DNA of 64,000 nucleotides from Acidimicrobiia bacterium UBA5794 (GTDB taxonomy: Bacteria; Actinomycetota; Acidimicrobiia; Spongiisociales; UBA5794), in the NCBI GenBank assembly GCA_002418265.1, contig DIDS01000009.1, forward strand, positions 58,764 through 122,763, in the 5' to 3' direction. Below, in pieces: positions 14,498 through 59,810 of the stretch. The notes below the pieces were generated by a model that did no database searches, was not told the DNA's origin, and worked only from the letters and a program-made list of their open reading frames with translations. A program made the translations under genes and the position numbers. Position 1 is the stretch's first letter; every line of letters begins with the position of its first letter.

Positions 14498-14533
14498 GTC
14501 TGACGTCAGACGTCAGAAAGAGAGCTGAAAGCT
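14498..14533. repeat. palindromic CAGACGT repeat plus GCTGAAAGCT motif (locus D)
   Basis: gtctgacgtcagacgtcagaaagagagctgaaagctg. GTCTGACGTCAGAC is a perfect 14-bp palindrome. Lies between convergent pepO and the nfu-like gene. Confidence 0.8.
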
Positions 14534-16506: not shown

Positions 16507-17040
16507 TCAGAAGTCAGAAGTCAGACGTCAGAGTCGGTTCAAACCCGTCCCCCCGGTCTTGCGGGGGGACGCGGAGCAACGCATGCACAGCAGGCGCTGC
16601 GTAGCAGGGGGGCGTCCCAGCCTGTCGCAATACCAGAGCCCCCCTGCCCCTCGCTACGCTCGGCGCGTCCCCCCGCAAGCGGGAGGACGGGAGAAGTCAG
16701 AGTCGGTTCTAAACCCGTCCCCCCGGTCTTGCGGGGGGACGCGGAGCAACGCATGCACAGCAGGCGCTGCGTAGCAGGGGGGCGTCCCAGCCTGTCGCAA
16801 TACCAGAGCCCCCCTGCCCCTCGCTACGCTCGGCGCGTCCCCCCGCAAGCGGGAGGACGGGAGAAGTCAGAGTCGGTTCTAAACCCGTCCCCCCGGTCTT
16901 CCGGGGGGACGCGGAGCAACGCATGCACAGCAGGGGTTGCATAGCAGGGGGCGTCCCAGCCTGTCGCAATACCAGAGCCCCCCTGCCCCTCGCTACGCTG
17001 TACTACCCAAACCGTCCGCCTGAAGGGGGGACGGGGGTTG
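16507..17040. repeat. heptamers plus 3 tandem copies of a 170-bp GC-rich hairpin-rich REP/MITE-like element (locus E)
   Basis: tcagaagtcagaagtcagacgtcagagtc, then units starting at 16528, 16697 and 16867 (period 169-170). Contains hairpins gtccccccggtcttgcggggggac and cgtccccccgcaagcgggaggacg. Copy 3 is diverged and supplies the CFA synthase C-terminus. Confidence 0.9.
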
Positions 17041-47876: not shown

Positions 47877-48977
47877 ATGAATTCCACGACACCCCCCGTT
47901 GTGCCTGTCATCCTCTCGGGTGGAATCGGATCACGCCTATGGCCAGCGTCACGCCGAACCATTCCCAAACAACTCCTGCCGCTCGTTGAGGAGCGCTCGA
48001 TGATCCGTGCAACATTCGAAAGGGCACAACGAATCGACGGTGCCACATCTCCGATCATTGTGACCAATGAGGACCATGTCGATGCCATCGATGCTGATCT
48101 CGACCGACGGCATGACGTGACGCTCATCATCGAACCGGTCGGCCGTAATACCGCACCAGCTGTCGCGGTGGCCGCGTACGAGGCAATGCGAGGAGGATCC
48201 GATCCTCTCCTCCTCGTACTCCCGTCTGATCATGTGATCACCGATGAGCTGGCATTCTCCGCAGCCGTGTCGGCGGCGGCAGCACAAGCAGCCGAGGGCT
48301 ACCTCGCCACATTCGGGATCAACCCCGACAAGGCCGAGACGGGATATGGATACATCTCGGTTGGAGATGCGATCGCTCCGTCAGTCCACAGGGTCGTCGA
48401 GTTCAGGGAGAAACCTGACGCGCAAACAGCAGCGCAGTACCTGGCGTCGGGGACCTATTTGTGGAACTCGGGCATGTTTCTATTCAAAGCTTCCACCTTC
48501 CTCAACGAACTTCATGAATTTGCATCCGACATCGCCGACGGCGCCGAACATGCCTGGAACAAAGCGTCCCGCGAACGAAACCGGGTCGTCCTCAACCATA
48601 GAATTTTTTCAACGGTTCGAGGGGAGTCGATCGACTACGCCGTGATGGAAAAGACCGCCAATGCTGCGGTGGTTCCAACCGATCCTGGCTGGAGCGACGT
48701 CGGATCATGGGCATCGCTGTGGGAGATAGCTGACAAGGATGAGCATGGGAACATTCTCGTTGGAGACGTCATCGACGTTGATGTCAGCGGCTCGTACATC
48801 GCCGCTGGGGACCGACTCATCGCCATCGTCGGAGTCGAAGACATCATCGTGGTCGATACCCCGGATGCCCTTCTGGTCATATCCAGGGATCGAGCTCAAG
48901 ATGTCAAGCAGATTGTCGACCGGCTCGATGCGGACAATCGACCGGAGCTCGAAGCCCGTCCATCTGAGCATGGGTAG
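47877..48977 (+). CDS. manC: mannose-1-phosphate guanylyltransferase (GDP-mannose pyrophosphorylase)
   Basis: VILSGGIGSRLWPASRRTIPKQ, LPSDHVI, GYGYI, VEKP-like blocks. Start at MNSTTPP; the track ORF begins at 47382. Confidence 0.8.
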   Translation: MNSTTPPVVPVILSGGIGSRLWPASRRTIPKQLLPLVEERSMIRATFERAQRIDGATSPIIVTNEDHVDAIDADLDRRHDVTLIIEPVGRNTAPAVAVAAYEAMRGGSDPLLLVLPSDHVITDELAFSAAVSAAAAQAAEGYLATFGINPDKAETGYGYISVGDAIAPSVHRVVEFREKPDAQTAAQYLASGTYLWNSGMFLFKASTFLNELHEFASDIADGAEHAWNKASRERNRVVLNHRIFSTVRGESIDYAVMEKTANAAVVPTDPGWSDVGSWASLWEIADKDEHGNILVGDVIDVDVSGSYIAAGDRLIAIVGVEDIIVVDTPDALLVISRDRAQDVKQIVDRLDADNRPELEARPSEHG

Positions 48978-49091
48978 AGCAATGGCGAGCCACGCTGCGG
49001 ACACGTAGGGTGACATAGCGGTTAGGTGATGACGAAAATGCGACGATATCAAGCATCCAACGCAGATTCTCGGGAAAGTTGAGTCGGAGAC

Positions 49092-49556
49092 ATGGCCCCG
49101 GTAGTGATCAGCGCATTGATTGTCGGGTTCATCGCCTGGGCAATCATGCTGTCTCGTCAACAATCGCAACGCAAGAAAGAGGCCATTGCCTCATTGCAAG
49201 AGGAGAAGGAGAGCCTTTCTGCATTCAGCATCCACGCTCTCGTGGAGGCAGAAGTTGCAGACCTGGGGCTCGCTGAGATTGACGGTGCCAAGGACATACC
49301 TGCGGAAATTCTCCTCAAGACTTGGAATACCAGCCAGCACATTGTCGCCAAGTGTCGGTCACGAGAAAGCCTCCGATTCACAACCGCCGAAGGGGTGCAA
49401 CCCGGCAACGCAACCGAGCGCGACGTTGACCTGGTCTGCGACGATCCGGAAGGTGCGTTGTCACCCGAATCGACCGGCGGCACCGCAGAACGACCTATCG
49501 AAGCCGACCGCAAACCTGGCGATGAACCCAGTCCGAACGATTCGTCAAATCCGTAG
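49092..49556 (+). CDS. small membrane-anchored hypothetical protein
   Basis: N-terminal TM segment (VVISALIVGFIAWAIML), a coiled KKEAIASLQEEKE stretch and an acidic tail. RBS ggagac. Confidence 0.45.
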   Translation: MAPVVISALIVGFIAWAIMLSRQQSQRKKEAIASLQEEKESLSAFSIHALVEAEVADLGLAEIDGAKDIPAEILLKTWNTSQHIVAKCRSRESLRFTTAEGVQPGNATERDVDLVCDDPEGALSPESTGGTAERPIEADRKPGDEPSPNDSSNP

Positions 49557-49591
49557 CCACTGAATCGGTAGCCACCGACACATCCTTCGAT

Positions 49592-49605
49592 ATCGGACGT
49601 CCGAT
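49592..49605. promoter_or_regulatory. palindrome ATCGGACGTCCGAT upstream of the HerA-like gene
   Basis: Perfect 14-bp palindrome 33 bp upstream of the ATG at 49638. Shares GACGTCCGATGTC with locus K. Confidence 0.35.
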
Positions 49606-49637
49606 GTCCATCCTCAGCCCTCAGTAGGCTGCCGCCC

Positions 49638-51956
49638 ATGAGTTTCTATCTCGGTGGACCCATAGACGACGCTGGCGAACGTGTCAATGGGAACACCTTC
49701 CAATACGACCCATCAGATTTGACGACGCACGGCGTGATCGTGGGAATGACGGGTTCGGGAAAAACGGGACTCGGCATCATCTTTCTCGAAGAGGCGCTAC
49801 GAGCCGGAATCCCAACCCTCGTCATCGACCCGAAGGGGGACATGACGAACCTTCTCCTCACGTTCCCGGATCTGTCTCCGACCGACTTCGAACCGTGGGT
49901 TGATGCCGCCGCTGCTGAAAAGGACGGTCGAACCTCACATGAGGAAGCCACCGCGGAAGCAGCGAAGTGGAAAACGGGTCTTGGCTGGTGGGACCTCAAT
50001 GCCGACGCCATCGCCAGCTTGCGCGAGCGAGCCGGAATGACGATCTACACGCCGGGATCGAATGCCGCAAATCCATTGAACATCGTGGGCAATCTCAACC
50101 CTCCGGTTCTTTCTTGGGACACGGATTCCGAGACCATCCGTGATGAGATCGAAGGCTTCACATCTGGACTTCTCGGTTTGATCGGCATAGACGCAGATCC
50201 GATTTCGTCACGTGAACACATACTGATCGCCAACCTTGTGGAACGAGCCTGGCGTGAAGGAACCACCCTCGACATCGGAACGATCATCACCCAGATCGCC
50301 AACCCGCCGATGCGCAAGCTTGGGGTGTTTGAGGTCGACCAGTTCTTTCCCGAGAAGGACCGCATGAAGCTGGCCATGCAACTCAATGGTCTTCTTGCGT
50401 CGCCATCGTTCGCCGCTTGGATGGCTGGTAACGACCTCGATATCGAGTCGCTCCTGTGGAAGAACGGAAAGCCGCAAGCGGCAATCATGTATCTCGCCCA
50501 CCTATCGGACATGGAACGCCAGTTCGTCGTCACCATGATCTACACAAGGCTCATCACGTGGATGCGATCACAGCCAGGAAGCAGCGACCTGCGAGTACTC
50601 GCCTACATGGATGAGGTCTTCGGATTCGTTCCTCCCACCGCGCAGCCGCCAGCCAAGAAGCCGATCCTCACATTGCTCAAGCAGGCGAGGGCCTTTGGTG
50701 TGGGCATGCTCTTGTCAACCCAGAATCCTGTCGATCTCGACTACAAGGCAATGTCGAATGCAGGAACTTGGTGTATCGGCCGACTCCAAACTGAGCGTGA
50801 CAAGGCACGGATCATCGAAGCTCTCACAACCTCGTCCGGAGCGATAGACACCGCCGAGATGGACACAACGATTTCCAAGCTTCCCAAACGTGGTTTCGTG
50901 ATCCACAACACAAGGGAAAAGGTGCCGACCACGATCACCACCCGATGGGCGATGTCGTATCTCAGAGGACCGATGACACGGGAAGAGGTGTCGCGCTTCA
51001 AGGACACTGCAACGGTGAAGGCGGCGAAGCCTCCATCACCGGCCGCCGACCCGACCCCGGATCCCACGAGCATTTCGGGACCTACGAGGACCCCCGAGGT
51101 CGCAGAAGGAGTTGCGTCCGTTGCGATCCATCCGGCCGCCCCATGGCGTGCGATCGTGGGCGACTCCGACGCCGGAACCGCGTACCGCGCGGCCTTCGCT
51201 GTCGATGTTGAGATGCGGTTCGACGAATCAAGGATCGGTGTCGACCACGTAGAGAGCTGGGAAGCCATCGTGATTGACCCAACGATCGATGATCTGTCAG
51301 ACCTCATCGAGATCGACTATGACACGCGAGACTTCATCGAGCCAGACAGCGCCATTCCCTTTCTGCCGACCGATGTGCCGATATCTCAACCGGGATTCTT
51401 CAACGACCTCAAGGCACGCGTCAAGAAGCATCTGGACACAAACGAGACGCTTGAGCTCTCACGAAATGCCGACCTCAAACTGGTTTCTCGTCCTGGTGAA
51501 CCCGAGAGCGACTTTCTTGTTCGCTGCCAGGACGCCGCCAACAATGCAGCCGATGCCGAAAAGGCCAAAGCTATTTCCAAGTACGAGACTCGCCTGAGGC
51601 GTGTTCGGCGCGCCTATGACGATGCTGTTGCTGACGCAAGCCTGGCTGAGCAGGCTGCTGCCGACGAGCAGCGCTCCGCCCTTCTCGGCTTCGGTCTCGA
51701 TCTCCTTACGGGCCGCAAGGCGCGACTTCCAGGCTCGCGATCTCGAACGACGCAGGATCGTGCCAGGCGCGCACAGTCCAAGATCGACTCCAAACGTGCA
51801 GAGTACGAAGACCTCACCGCTGAAATGGAGGACGCGTGTGTCGCAATCGACGACAAGTGGGATACCAAGGTCTCCAACATCGAACCGGTGACAATCGGCC
51901 TTGAGGCCGACGACATCCGCGTCACCGATGTCAAAGTGGTCTGGATACGGACCTAA
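49638..51956 (+). CDS. HerA/FtsK-superfamily P-loop ATPase (DUF853/YjgR-like) with roughly 290-aa C-terminal coiled-coil extension
   Basis: Walker A VIVGMTGSGKTGLG, Walker B LAYMDEVFGF, and the conserved LLSTQNPVDLDYKAMSNAGTWCIGRLQTERDK block. 772 aa. Confidence 0.7.
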   Translation: MSFYLGGPIDDAGERVNGNTFQYDPSDLTTHGVIVGMTGSGKTGLGIIFLEEALRAGIPTLVIDPKGDMTNLLLTFPDLSPTDFEPWVDAAAAEKDGRTSHEEATAEAAKWKTGLGWWDLNADAIASLRERAGMTIYTPGSNAANPLNIVGNLNPPVLSWDTDSETIRDEIEGFTSGLLGLIGIDADPISSREHILIANLVERAWREGTTLDIGTIITQIANPPMRKLGVFEVDQFFPEKDRMKLAMQLNGLLASPSFAAWMAGNDLDIESLLWKNGKPQAAIMYLAHLSDMERQFVVTMIYTRLITWMRSQPGSSDLRVLAYMDEVFGFVPPTAQPPAKKPILTLLKQARAFGVGMLLSTQNPVDLDYKAMSNAGTWCIGRLQTERDKARIIEALTTSSGAIDTAEMDTTISKLPKRGFVIHNTREKVPTTITTRWAMSYLRGPMTREEVSRFKDTATVKAAKPPSPAADPTPDPTSISGPTRTPEVAEGVASVAIHPAAPWRAIVGDSDAGTAYRAAFAVDVEMRFDESRIGVDHVESWEAIVIDPTIDDLSDLIEIDYDTRDFIEPDSAIPFLPTDVPISQPGFFNDLKARVKKHLDTNETLELSRNADLKLVSRPGEPESDFLVRCQDAANNAADAEKAKAISKYETRLRRVRRAYDDAVADASLAEQAAADEQRSALLGFGLDLLTGRKARLPGSRSRTTQDRARRAQSKIDSKRAEYEDLTAEMEDACVAIDDKWDTKVSNIEPVTIGLEADDIRVTDVKVVWIRT

Positions 51957-52229
51957 CGGTCAGACATCAGACATCAGACGGCCCCCCTGCGGAGCAGCGC
52001 CTGCTGCGCAGGCGTTGCTCCGCGTCCCCCCGGTAGCCGGGGGGACGGGAAAAAGTCCAACACCGTCCTCCCGCTTGCGGGGGGACGCGCCGAGCGCAGC
52101 GAGGAGCAGGGGGGCTTCCGACGTCTGACCTCTGGAAGACGGGGCTCGCAGGCTCGCACGCCCCCCTGATTCGACTACGTAGGATTAGTCCCTCCTGAAG
52201 GGGGGACGGGAGATCGGAAGATCTCGAAG
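51957..52229. repeat. heptamers plus composite REP/MITE-like element (locus M)
   Basis: cagacatcagacatcagacg, then a copy related to locus L, then a reverse-complement copy of the 114-bp unit of locus N (tcctcccgcttgcggggggacgcgccgagcgcagcgaggagcaggggggcttccgacgtc; ggaagacggggctcgcaggctcgcacgccc). Confidence 0.9.
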
Positions 52230-53279
52230 CTATATGAGATCCTGTTCGCGGATTCCGAAGCTTGGATGTCGCAGCCGACACAAAGCCAGCTTTTCAAGTT
52301 GTCGAATGCGCTCGCGTGTCAGGTTGAATTCCTCGCCGATCTCTTCAAGGGTGCGCGGTATCCCGTCATAGAACCCGTAGCGAAGGGCAAGGATGCGACC
52401 TTCCCTTGTGGGAAGACGGTCAATCGACTTGCGAAGCGAATTTGCAATGTCCATCTCTTCGGTGACCTTGACGGGGTCAACGGCATCCTCATCTTCGATG
52501 AAATCACCAAGTTGTGCCCCGTCTTCACCGATCGGCTGCTCGAGAGAGACGGTGTCGGCAACGGCAAGGGCAAGTTCAACCTTGGATACCTCAACGCCGG
52601 CCTCTTCCGCGATCTCGTCGGGTTTGGGATCACGTCCAAGCTCAGCCTTGAGCGATGCCTGCGCTGCGCGCACGGCAGCGAGGGTGTCATGGAGATGAAC
52701 CGGAATTCTGACAGTACGCGATTTGTCGGCAATGGCACGGGTGATCGCCTGCCGGATCCACCACGTTGCATATGTCGAGAACTTGAACCCCTTGCGCCAG
52801 TCGAACTTCTCAACCGCCCGGATCAGGCCAAGATTGCCTTCCTGGATCAGGTCAAGGAAATCGATCCCGGAGGTGTTCGCATACCGACGGGCGTTCGCCA
52901 CCACAAGACGCAGGTTTGCGGTCAGAAAGGCATCCTTGGCCTCACTCCCGCGCCGTACCTGGCGCTTCAAGAGAATGTGTTCAGCCTTGGTCTTGTAATC
53001 GCCAGCCTCAAGGCGTTGGATCGCTGCCTGTCCTGCCTCGATCTTCTGGGCATAGTCAACTTCATTCTCGGCCGTGAGAAGCTCGAACTCGCCGATTGAA
53101 GTCAGATACTGAGAAACGAGGTCAGTTGTCAGCCTGCCACGGTCATCGGTCAGCTTGGATCGTTCGCGATCCTTGAGTGATCGAGACAGCGTGTCACGAT
53201 CCATCCGCTCTTTGGCTTCCTCGCGTTCGCGGGCAGCCTTGTCGACGATCGCTTTTCGCGGCTTTGAATCTGTCGTCAT
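52230..53279 (-). CDS. RNA polymerase sigma-70 family factor, group 2 (SigB/HrdB-like)
   Basis: Regions 1.2, 2 ([31 protein letters not shown]), 3 and 4 ([20 protein letters not shown]). Confidence 0.85.
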
Positions 53280-59482: not shown

Positions 59483-59810
59483 ATCTGACGTCAGACAACC
59501 CTGATCTGTCCCCCCGCAAGCGGGAGGACGGGAAGAGGGCGTGCGAGCCTGCGAGCCCCGTCTTCCAGCGGGGGACAGATTCGACGTCGGAAGCCCCCCT
59601 GCCCCTCGCTGCGCTCCTCGCGTCCCCCCGCAAGCGGGAGGACGGGAAGAGGGCGTGCGAGCCTGCGAGCCCCGTCTTCCAGCGGGGGACAGATTCGACG
59701 TCGGAAGCCCCCCTGCCCCTCGCTGCGCTCGGCGCGTCCCCCCGCAAGCGGGGGGACGGGAAGAAAAGGCGACGTCAGAAGCTGAAAGCCGGAAGCTGAA
59801 AGCTCCTAAG
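59483..59810. repeat. heptamer plus 2.3 tandem copies of a 114-bp REP/MITE-like unit plus GCTGAAAGC motifs (locus N)
   Basis: Units start at 59508, 59622 and 59736 (period 114). The core ttcgacgtcggaagcccccctgcccctcgctgcgctc-gcgtccccccgcaagcgggaggacgggaag is shared with locus E. The element ends with gacgtcagaagctgaaagccggaagctgaaagctc. Confidence 0.9.

Follow-up and report, generated by a model that had tools for sequence, protein, structure and literature searches.

A HerA/FtsK-superfamily ATPase with a family-specific C-terminal module and its neighbours at an Acidimicrobiia locus

A 64,000-nucleotide stretch of the genome of Acidimicrobiia bacterium UBA5794 (GenBank assembly GCA_002418265.1, contig DIDS01000009.1, positions 58,764 to 122,763 of the forward strand; hereafter the window, by which the whole of this analysed stretch is meant) contains two neighbouring open reading frames (ORFs) on the forward strand, one of 154 amino acids (aa) at 49092-49556 and one of 772 aa at 49638-51956. 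The shorter encodes a putative membrane protein and the longer an ATPase. The first-pass annotation, made from the letters of the sequence, had described them as an isolated two-gene unit that could act as a membrane-tethered and possibly defence-related translocase. Does the locus hold such a unit, or does the ATPase stand alone? We consider it reasonably probable that the 772-aa protein is an ordinary, vertically inherited, chromosomal and soluble ATPase of the HerA/FtsK superfamily with no dedicated partner in its neighbourhood. Its orthologues are stand-alone, no partner gene is conserved with them and no defence genes were found around the gene studied here, which speaks against the proposed unit; the 154-aa protein, a palindrome between the two genes and a repeat downstream are unrelated neighbours.

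The ATPase and its family

The coordinates of both ORFs were confirmed, and the assignment of the longer one (49638..51956, + strand), which also has full-length homologues, to the HerA/FtsK superfamily was confirmed by Pfam and Foldseek. The Pfam domain DUF87, the central domain of HerA, matched residues 27-130 (E 1.8e-7, 32 bits against a cut-off of 23.2), and the matches of the protein to sequences in the Protein Data Bank (PDB) were HerA proteins. The AlphaFold2 (AF2) model, built on 62 homologues, had a mean predicted local distance difference test (pLDDT) score of 86.7, which mostly exceeded 85 in the core. When this model was compared with the PDB by Foldseek, the top matches were HerA-NurA, Sulfolobus HerA, Sir2-HerA and DndH-C (E 6e-13 to 1e-11), and the wider set, which included Deinococcus HerA, DUF4297-HerA and TdpA, was found at E 6e-13 to 1e-9 with a probability of 1.00 and 13-16% identity. 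The ATPase core (aa 1-457; 49638..51008, + strand) thus has a predicted HerA-like fold. Its Walker A motif or P-loop (G36-MTGSGKTG-44; 49743..49769, + strand) was invariant in 62 sequences from several phyla, and in the Walker B motif (Y323-M-D325-E326; 50604..50615, + strand) Y323, D325 and E326 were invariant and M324 was kept in at least 90% of the same 62 sequences. The polar core residues that are invariant across phyla include R351, Q362, N363, D366, D368, K370, R391 and R436. Motifs and model together confirm the predicted HerA/FtsK-superfamily P-loop ATPase, with both Walker motifs intact.

In the AF2 model only about 35 residues, forming two short strands, precede the P-loop, and the HAS-barrel of canonical HerA is therefore missing. 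The hydropathy scan of the 772-aa protein revealed no transmembrane (TM) segment (maximal 19-aa hydropathy 1.54). The first-pass annotation had also reported a match to the DUF853/YjgR architecture over the first 480 aa or so. A remote likeness is indeed present, but its extent was overestimated: the Pfam HerA_C model (PF05872, formerly DUF853) matched residues 29-72 only (E 1.5e-5), which corresponds to 44 of the 502 model positions (21-64) and to 24.3 bits against a gathering score of 22. A member of YjgR/DUF853 would be a protein of about 500 aa matching this model over its full length, and the 772-aa protein does neither. The Walker B segment aligns with the FFFDE motif of Escherichia coli YjgR (b4263, taken from the K-12 record). 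The label DUF853-like therefore holds as a remote architectural resemblance and not as family membership.

The tail that makes up the rest of the protein (aa 458-772) carries a C-terminal module. The tail begins with a variable linker rich in Pro, Ala and Thr (aa 458-492; 51009..51113, + strand) that is predicted to be disordered from the AF2 model, composition and alignment: pLDDT was below 50 at residues 458-479, P and A made up 23% and 17%, and the linker aligned poorly across homologues. The first part of a family-specific beta-rich domain follows (aa 493-622; 51114..51503, + strand; pLDDT ~90-95) and ends in the conserved motif PGE..F..R. An antiparallel coiled-coil hairpin is predicted at aa 623-745 (51504..51872, + strand), with helices at 623-691 and 699-745, and the last two beta-strands (aa 746-772; 51873..51953, + strand), seen in the AF2 model and in the conservation pattern, include the invariant W769 and would lead back from the hairpin to the beta-domain. 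An independent model of residues 484-772 gave the same layout with a pLDDT of 90. From the lengths of its helices the hairpin was estimated to be about 100 Å long, and its apex loop bears a conserved basic motif, L-x-G-R-(K/R)...R..S. The tip reads LLTGRKARLPGSRSR in this protein and LGxLxGRRSxR in the consensus, hydrophobic and then basic. P486, E621, F626, R629 and W769 were invariant in 62 sequences, and G692 at the hairpin tip was invariant or nearly so. Foldseek comparison of the module with solved structures gave nothing below E 0.02, and the Pfam scan of it yielded coiled-coil noise and no family relative.

This part had previously been described as an Ala/Arg/Glu-rich coiled-coil tail of roughly 290 aa that is not usual for the family, and a structure prediction had been proposed as a check. 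The models do contain a helical hairpin, but the coiled coil comprises only about 120 residues of the tail, is rich in Ala, Asp and Arg, and is accompanied by a linker and a beta-domain that are not coiled coil. Nor is the tail exceptional, as it was collinear in thousands of homologues 750-860 aa long and is standard for the protein's own family. As a separate observation, the hairpin-tip motif (aa 681-697) is similar to the very last residues of E. coli YjgR (aa 488-500, GMLGSLLGGRRR; YjgR is encoded at L088:8562-10064:-), a likeness too short for statistics, and hhalign of the C-module profile against YjgR showed no similarity.

The family search scored over 8000 clusters at 90% identity and gave at least 1493 representatives of 50%-identity clusters at E <= 1e-30. 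The best 150 of these 1493 were mostly 750-860 aa long and about half of them matched residues 2-770 in one stretch. Among the matches listed, hundreds covered 99-100% of the query at 37-85% identity; the same coverage was reached at 53-79% identity within Acidimicrobiia, and similar coverage at 37-42% identity in Caldilineae, Anaerolineae, Nitrospirales, Theionarchaea and Methanofastidiosa and at 36-48% identity in the representatives of 50%-identity clusters, which were mostly 750-860 aa in length. The named members belonged mainly to uncultured lineages and came from Acidimicrobiia, Chloroflexota (Caldilineae/Anaerolineae/Flexilinea), Nitrospirota and archaea (Theionarchaea, Methanofastidiosa), and partial proteins of the family from Acidobacteriota (Pyrinomonadaceae) and Planctomycetota. 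Of the first 599 matches to the pattern in species genomes, at least 585 encode a relative. The 772-aa protein carries the complete family signature, that is, the core, the variable linker and the beta-domain with an inserted hairpin (PGE..F..R, a G-R tip and a terminal W).

The C-terminal module was shown to be present in every full-length homologue and to be found only together with the ATPase part. When the profile of the module was used in a search, the source-named matches among those listed were flagged partial proteins of the same ATPase family, and in both cases examined on long contigs the ATPase part was encoded directly upstream of the module, as a result of split gene calls. In one of them (L089:3619-6068) gene calling divided the family gene into two ORFs, 461 aa and 355 aa long, with a 4-bp overlap, so that the split lies near the disordered linker (the first ORF has 461 aa and the core here 457 aa); the split could be genuine or result from a frameshift in the long reads. 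The split in L090 falls inside the ATPase part and looks like an assembly error. The 772-aa protein studied here has the same sequence as one annotated in GenBank as "DUF87 domain-containing protein" in the Acidimicrobiia metagenome-assembled genome GCA_027494075.1, on a 2.73-Mb contig that the window matches at 100% protein identity. This particular locus holds nothing unusual and the ATPase gene is a typical member of its family.

The neighbourhood of the ATPase gene

The genes around the pair are housekeeping genes, with a CLC chloride channel (CBS and TrkA-C domains) and manC (mannose-1-phosphate guanylyltransferase) on one side and a convergent RpoD/SigA-type sigma-70 factor, LysE and a cytochrome c on the other side of the ATPase gene. 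The GC content is even over the region (0.57-0.59). The neighbourhood contained no defence, nuclease, methylase or secretion-system genes and no nurA, mre11 or rad50. Searches by tblastn found no match to the ATPase in phages and only two weak partial matches in 72,556 plasmids.

The conservation of the neighbourhood was evaluated in 89 non-redundant loci, 80 from Acidimicrobiia and nine from outside this class. The 80 orthologous loci were taken from species genomes and compared by tblastn synteny, and some of them had short upstream flanks; the nine others represent Nitrospira salsa, a Theionarchaea genome and seven metagenome contigs. The sole neighbour widely retained within Acidimicrobiia was the convergent sigma factor (54 of 80 loci, 79-99% identity), an adjacency that is lineage synteny at the level of the class. 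The nine outside loci had no common neighbour beyond lineage synteny, the sole exception being a DUF2780-DUF2959-Transgly_assoc trio common to two of them, one of which is Nitrospira salsa.

The gene of the 154-aa protein (49092..49556, + strand), identified by its ORF and by tblastn synteny, was regarded in the first-pass annotation as a single-pass membrane partner of the ATPase. The single hydrophobic segment was confirmed: residues 2-20 at the N-terminus are strongly hydrophobic (mean Kyte-Doolittle value 2.44), and the alignment of homologues revealed a TM helix followed by a conserved domain of some 100 aa, in which cysteines are also conserved. No family in Pfam, NCBIfam or PADLOC was matched. 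The gene is real and conserved and defines a small Acidimicrobiia family. The role of a partner, however, did not hold, since the gene follows manC. Homologues were detected in 14 of the 80 loci (L004, L006, L008-L012, L015, L017, L018, L023, L031, L033, L038), in each case with 20-400 bp between manC and the homologue and 0.09-5.3 kb from there to the ATPase gene downstream, and because the small gene stands directly after manC in all 14, it belongs with manC and not with the ATPase gene. In L004, the closest relative, the homologue lies 90 bp from the ATPase gene and the arrangement is kept, whereas in the other 13 loci the two genes are 0.9-5.3 kb apart, with unrelated genes between them that often lie on the opposite strand. 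In the flanks retrieved for the remaining 66 loci, some of them short upstream, a homologue was not detected, and nothing resembling the 154-aa protein was found among the annotated neighbours in the nine outside loci. The comparison of neighbourhoods, which had been proposed as a check for a conserved small membrane gene, thus tied this gene to manC. Its constant place after manC suggests a role connected with GDP-mannose or the cell envelope, and its adjacency to the ATPase gene in this genome is best explained as a local accident through the loss of intervening genes.

The 81-bp spacer of the two genes contains the perfect 14-nt palindrome ATCGGACGTCCGAT (49592..49605) that the first-pass annotation had noted; according to the window scan it is present once. 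It lies between the genes rather than ahead of both, occurs at a chance-level frequency (9 perfect 14-nt palindromes in the window and 2-9 in ten shuffles) and lacks conservation: the spacer of the 85%-identical orthologous locus L004 shares the 23 bases that precede the ATG and lacks the palindrome, and nothing similar was found in the more distant orthologous loci. The palindrome was therefore rejected as an operator. The Rfam search over 48800-52400 gave no family. Three of the nine palindromes, at 14498, 29090 and 49592, share a GACGTC core (GTCTGACGTCAGAC, GCTTGACGTCAAGC and ATCGGACGTCCGAT), and strings similar to TCAGACGTCAGA also flank the dispersed repeat described below; these could be a binding site or a sequence derived from the repeat.

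The locus had also been described as bracketed by repeats. This is correct for the downstream side, where the repeat scan recognized 51957..52230, between the convergent ATPase and sigma-70 genes, as one copy of a dispersed repeat with nested G6/C6 hairpins, but nothing repetitive was found upstream of the gene pair. The element is about 170 bp long, consists of nested C6/G6 hairpins and is often bordered by runs of TCAGAC(A/G) heptads. Further copies lie at 16520-17040 (three in tandem), at ~41313 and at 59600-59780, and GGGGGGACG occurs 17 times in the window against 1.4 expected. The RNA fold of 51957-52230 had a dG of -168.6 kcal/mol (z -8.6). The element looks like an intergenic repeat of the repetitive extragenic palindromic (REP) or miniature inverted-repeat transposable element (MITE) type. 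Since the orthologous spacer between the ATPase and sigma factor genes in L004 is only about 48 bp, the repeat at 51957-52230 is an insertion between convergent genes and lies outside the ATPase unit.

Weighing the possible readings

The likeliest activity of the 772-aa protein, by analogy with its structural relatives, is that of a translocase or remodeller that forms a ring, is driven by ATP and carries coiled-coil arms on tethers. Like these relatives it would assemble into a ring, probably a hexamer, and ATP hydrolysis at the subunit interfaces would pull or remodel a polymer through the central pore. The polymer would most likely be DNA, given that every close structural relative acts on DNA, with RNA or protein as alternatives. 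Six tethered coiled-coil arms might, speculatively, capture or retain either the substrate or a partner encoded elsewhere. As no experiment or publication on the family was found, we infer ring assembly, the substrate and the role of the C-module from relatives at 13-16% identity.

Several observations weigh against an ordinary ATPase without a dedicated neighbouring partner, or against the activity outlined for it. Besides the silence of the literature on this family, there are same-strand genes that recur next to the ATPase gene in sub-clades of Acidimicrobiia. In 27 of the 80 loci a protein of about 127 aa is encoded directly downstream, at a distance of 30-90 bp from the stop codon of the ATPase gene, and could be a lineage-specific partner of the ATPase, and a SLOG/LOG protein (Pfam LDcluster4/Lysine_decarbox) is encoded upstream in about 35 of the 80. 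In this genome, moreover, co-transcription of the 154-aa gene and the ATPase gene is possible. The predicted template modelling score (pTM) of the model was 0.60, so that the placement of the C-module relative to the core is undefined, and all parts of the protein are acidic (isoelectric points 4.3-5.6), the support for DNA binding being limited to the basic tip of the hairpin.

The ~127-aa protein matches no family, has the motifs LVGEATLRAVE and LVGSALL and is confined to one Acidimicrobiia sub-clade, its loci including L016, L017, L019, L023-L025, L028, L033, L041, L042, L044, L049 and L080. Between the SLOG/LOG gene and the ATPase gene the distance ranges from 12 bp to 3 kb (e.g., L039:6951-7538 and L060:4294-4848), and a CBS-pair protein is a further recurrent neighbour in sub-clades. 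Both the 127-aa and the SLOG/LOG protein were searched for in the window and were absent from it. As general partners of the ATPase they were rejected, with no credible match in six of the outside loci (L084-L087, L089, L090).

The possibility that the 154-aa protein and the ATPase are nevertheless a dedicated two-gene unit, which would be tethered to the membrane and move nucleic acid across or along it, has a very slight chance of being correct. The two genes lie on the same strand 81 bp apart, no terminator was predicted in the spacer, the small protein has a clear N-terminal TM segment and the arrangement is kept in L004. This has to be set against the 13 loci in which unrelated genes separate the small gene from the ATPase gene, the 66 in whose flanks it went undetected, its absence from the annotated neighbours outside the class and the likely loss of intervening genes here. 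The orthologues have no conserved partner and carry the same C-terminal extension, which is the pattern that the first-pass annotation itself had set against its proposal. Equally little can be said for the ATPase as a motor that drives anti-phage defence or another conflict system, in the manner of Sir2-HerA, DUF4297-HerA, Dnd/TdpAB or MADS, a reading that we regard as barely credible. The partial PADLOC matches (mad8, E 6.9e-10; HerA models, E ~1e-8) and structural neighbours that include Sir2-HerA, DUF4297-HerA, TdpA and DndH point in its direction, but the NCBIfam model of antiphage HerA (NF042943, HerA_antiphage) gave 28.5 bits against a cut-off of 800, and the HAS-barrel on which effectors dock is absent. 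Instead of an effector, nuclease or methylase, the ATPase gene has the CLC channel, manC, sigma-70, LysE and cytochrome c genes around it, in a position that is stable across a bacterial class, and it has no phage and almost no plasmid matches.

Two further alternatives remain. That the protein is a divergent YjgR/DUF853 orthologue which has gained a tail and retained the function of YjgR seems rather unlikely to us, although both proteins start almost at the P-loop, are soluble and stand alone, and HerA_C scores above its gathering threshold. Hhalign of the family profile against YjgR gave a probability of 90.7% (E 1.2e-6) over ~180 columns in the Walker B half, BLASTP aligned residues 25-89 with YjgR 19-93 (E 8e-6, the Walker A block) and residues 267-377 with 204-317 (E 2e-3), and PDB entry 11kk ("HerA like helicase YjgR") was matched at E 1.2e-3. 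However, the Pfam match covers less than a tenth of the model, the identity is ~25% and confined to short blocks, the tails are unrelated, and the family is internally 36-48% identical over its full length across phyla, far above its identity to YjgR. It is highly unlikely, in turn, that the protein is a HerA that resects DNA ends in the manner of HerA-NurA, or what remains of a conjugative coupling or DNA-import ATPase (TraD/VirD4, CedB/CedD). HerA-NurA complexes were the best Foldseek matches, CedD, CedB, TraD and helicase_HerA of NCBIfam were matched weakly, and TrwB_AAD_bind was found in some homologues; yet the NCBIfam scores for antiphage HerA, CedB/CedD, TraD and repair HerA were all 14-28 bits against cut-offs of 366-970 and covered the P-loop or the Walker B block only. 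Neither nurA, mre11 and rad50 nor type IV secretion system (T4SS) genes lie nearby, the protein has no TM segment and the family is essentially absent from plasmids.

An ordinary stand-alone chromosomal ATPase therefore remains our preferred explanation of this locus. A bolder proposal, which we put forward as improbable though conceivable, is that the family represents an unrecognised class of housekeeping ring motors, distinct from HerA, FtsK, YjgR and the coupling proteins, in which six flexibly tethered coiled-coil arms with a conserved tip would attach the motor to some cellular structure, for instance the membrane, the nucleoid or a large complex, in a process common to mostly uncultured bacteria and some archaea and lacking in model organisms. 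With the two-gene membrane translocase or defence unit removed from the locus as a false lead, what remains is a widespread, unstudied family that combines a HerA-type motor with a C-module matching no solved structure or curated domain. With a curated family model and a single study of its biochemistry or structure, an annotation could be given to thousands of genes now called "DUF87 domain-containing" or "ATP-binding protein".

Comparison with known systems

YjgR shares with the 772-aa protein a soluble, stand-alone organization with the P-loop ~30-40 residues from the N-terminus and no HAS-barrel, and its Walker A and Walker B/sensor blocks are collinear. It differs in having 500 aa, without the linker, beta-domain and hairpin module. 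The literature on YjgR, DUF853 and coiled-coil FtsK-HerA proteins yielded nothing on function. With the type IV coupling proteins (TraD/VirD4/TrwB) the likeness is weaker: the TraD models scored 16-22 bits against cut-offs of 366-648, and the 772-aa protein differs from these proteins in lacking a TM anchor, nearby T4SS genes and more than a marginal presence on plasmids. The arms of SMC, Rad50 and MukB and of prefoldin are comparable only as generic coiled coils without sequence similarity; compared to SMC, Rad50 and MukB, the hairpin has no hinge or zinc hook and no ABC head, and the beta-domain matches nothing.

The HerA proteins of defence systems (Sir2-HerA, 8wiv/8uae; DUF4297-HerA, 8zit/9c1m; TdpA, 8wfd; DndH, 7es4) have the core fold in common with the 772-aa protein and show weak sequence matches around Walker B. 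In contrast to them, the gene described here has no effector gene or defence-island context, its position is conserved throughout the class and it is not found on phages. Canonical HerA of the HerA-NurA system (PDB 4d2i, 9x1m, 7wrw) shares both the core fold (Foldseek E 6e-13 to 2.5e-11) and the catalytic motifs, which makes ring formation and polymer translocation the default mechanistic expectation for the 772-aa protein as well. It is nevertheless distinct from this protein, which has no HAS-barrel, is 13-16% identical, carries an extra C-terminal module and scored 16.7 bits against a cut-off of 970 with the helicase_HerA model (NF040819). The family is a variant of the HerA/FtsK theme in which the HAS-barrel is absent and a unique C-terminal module is present.

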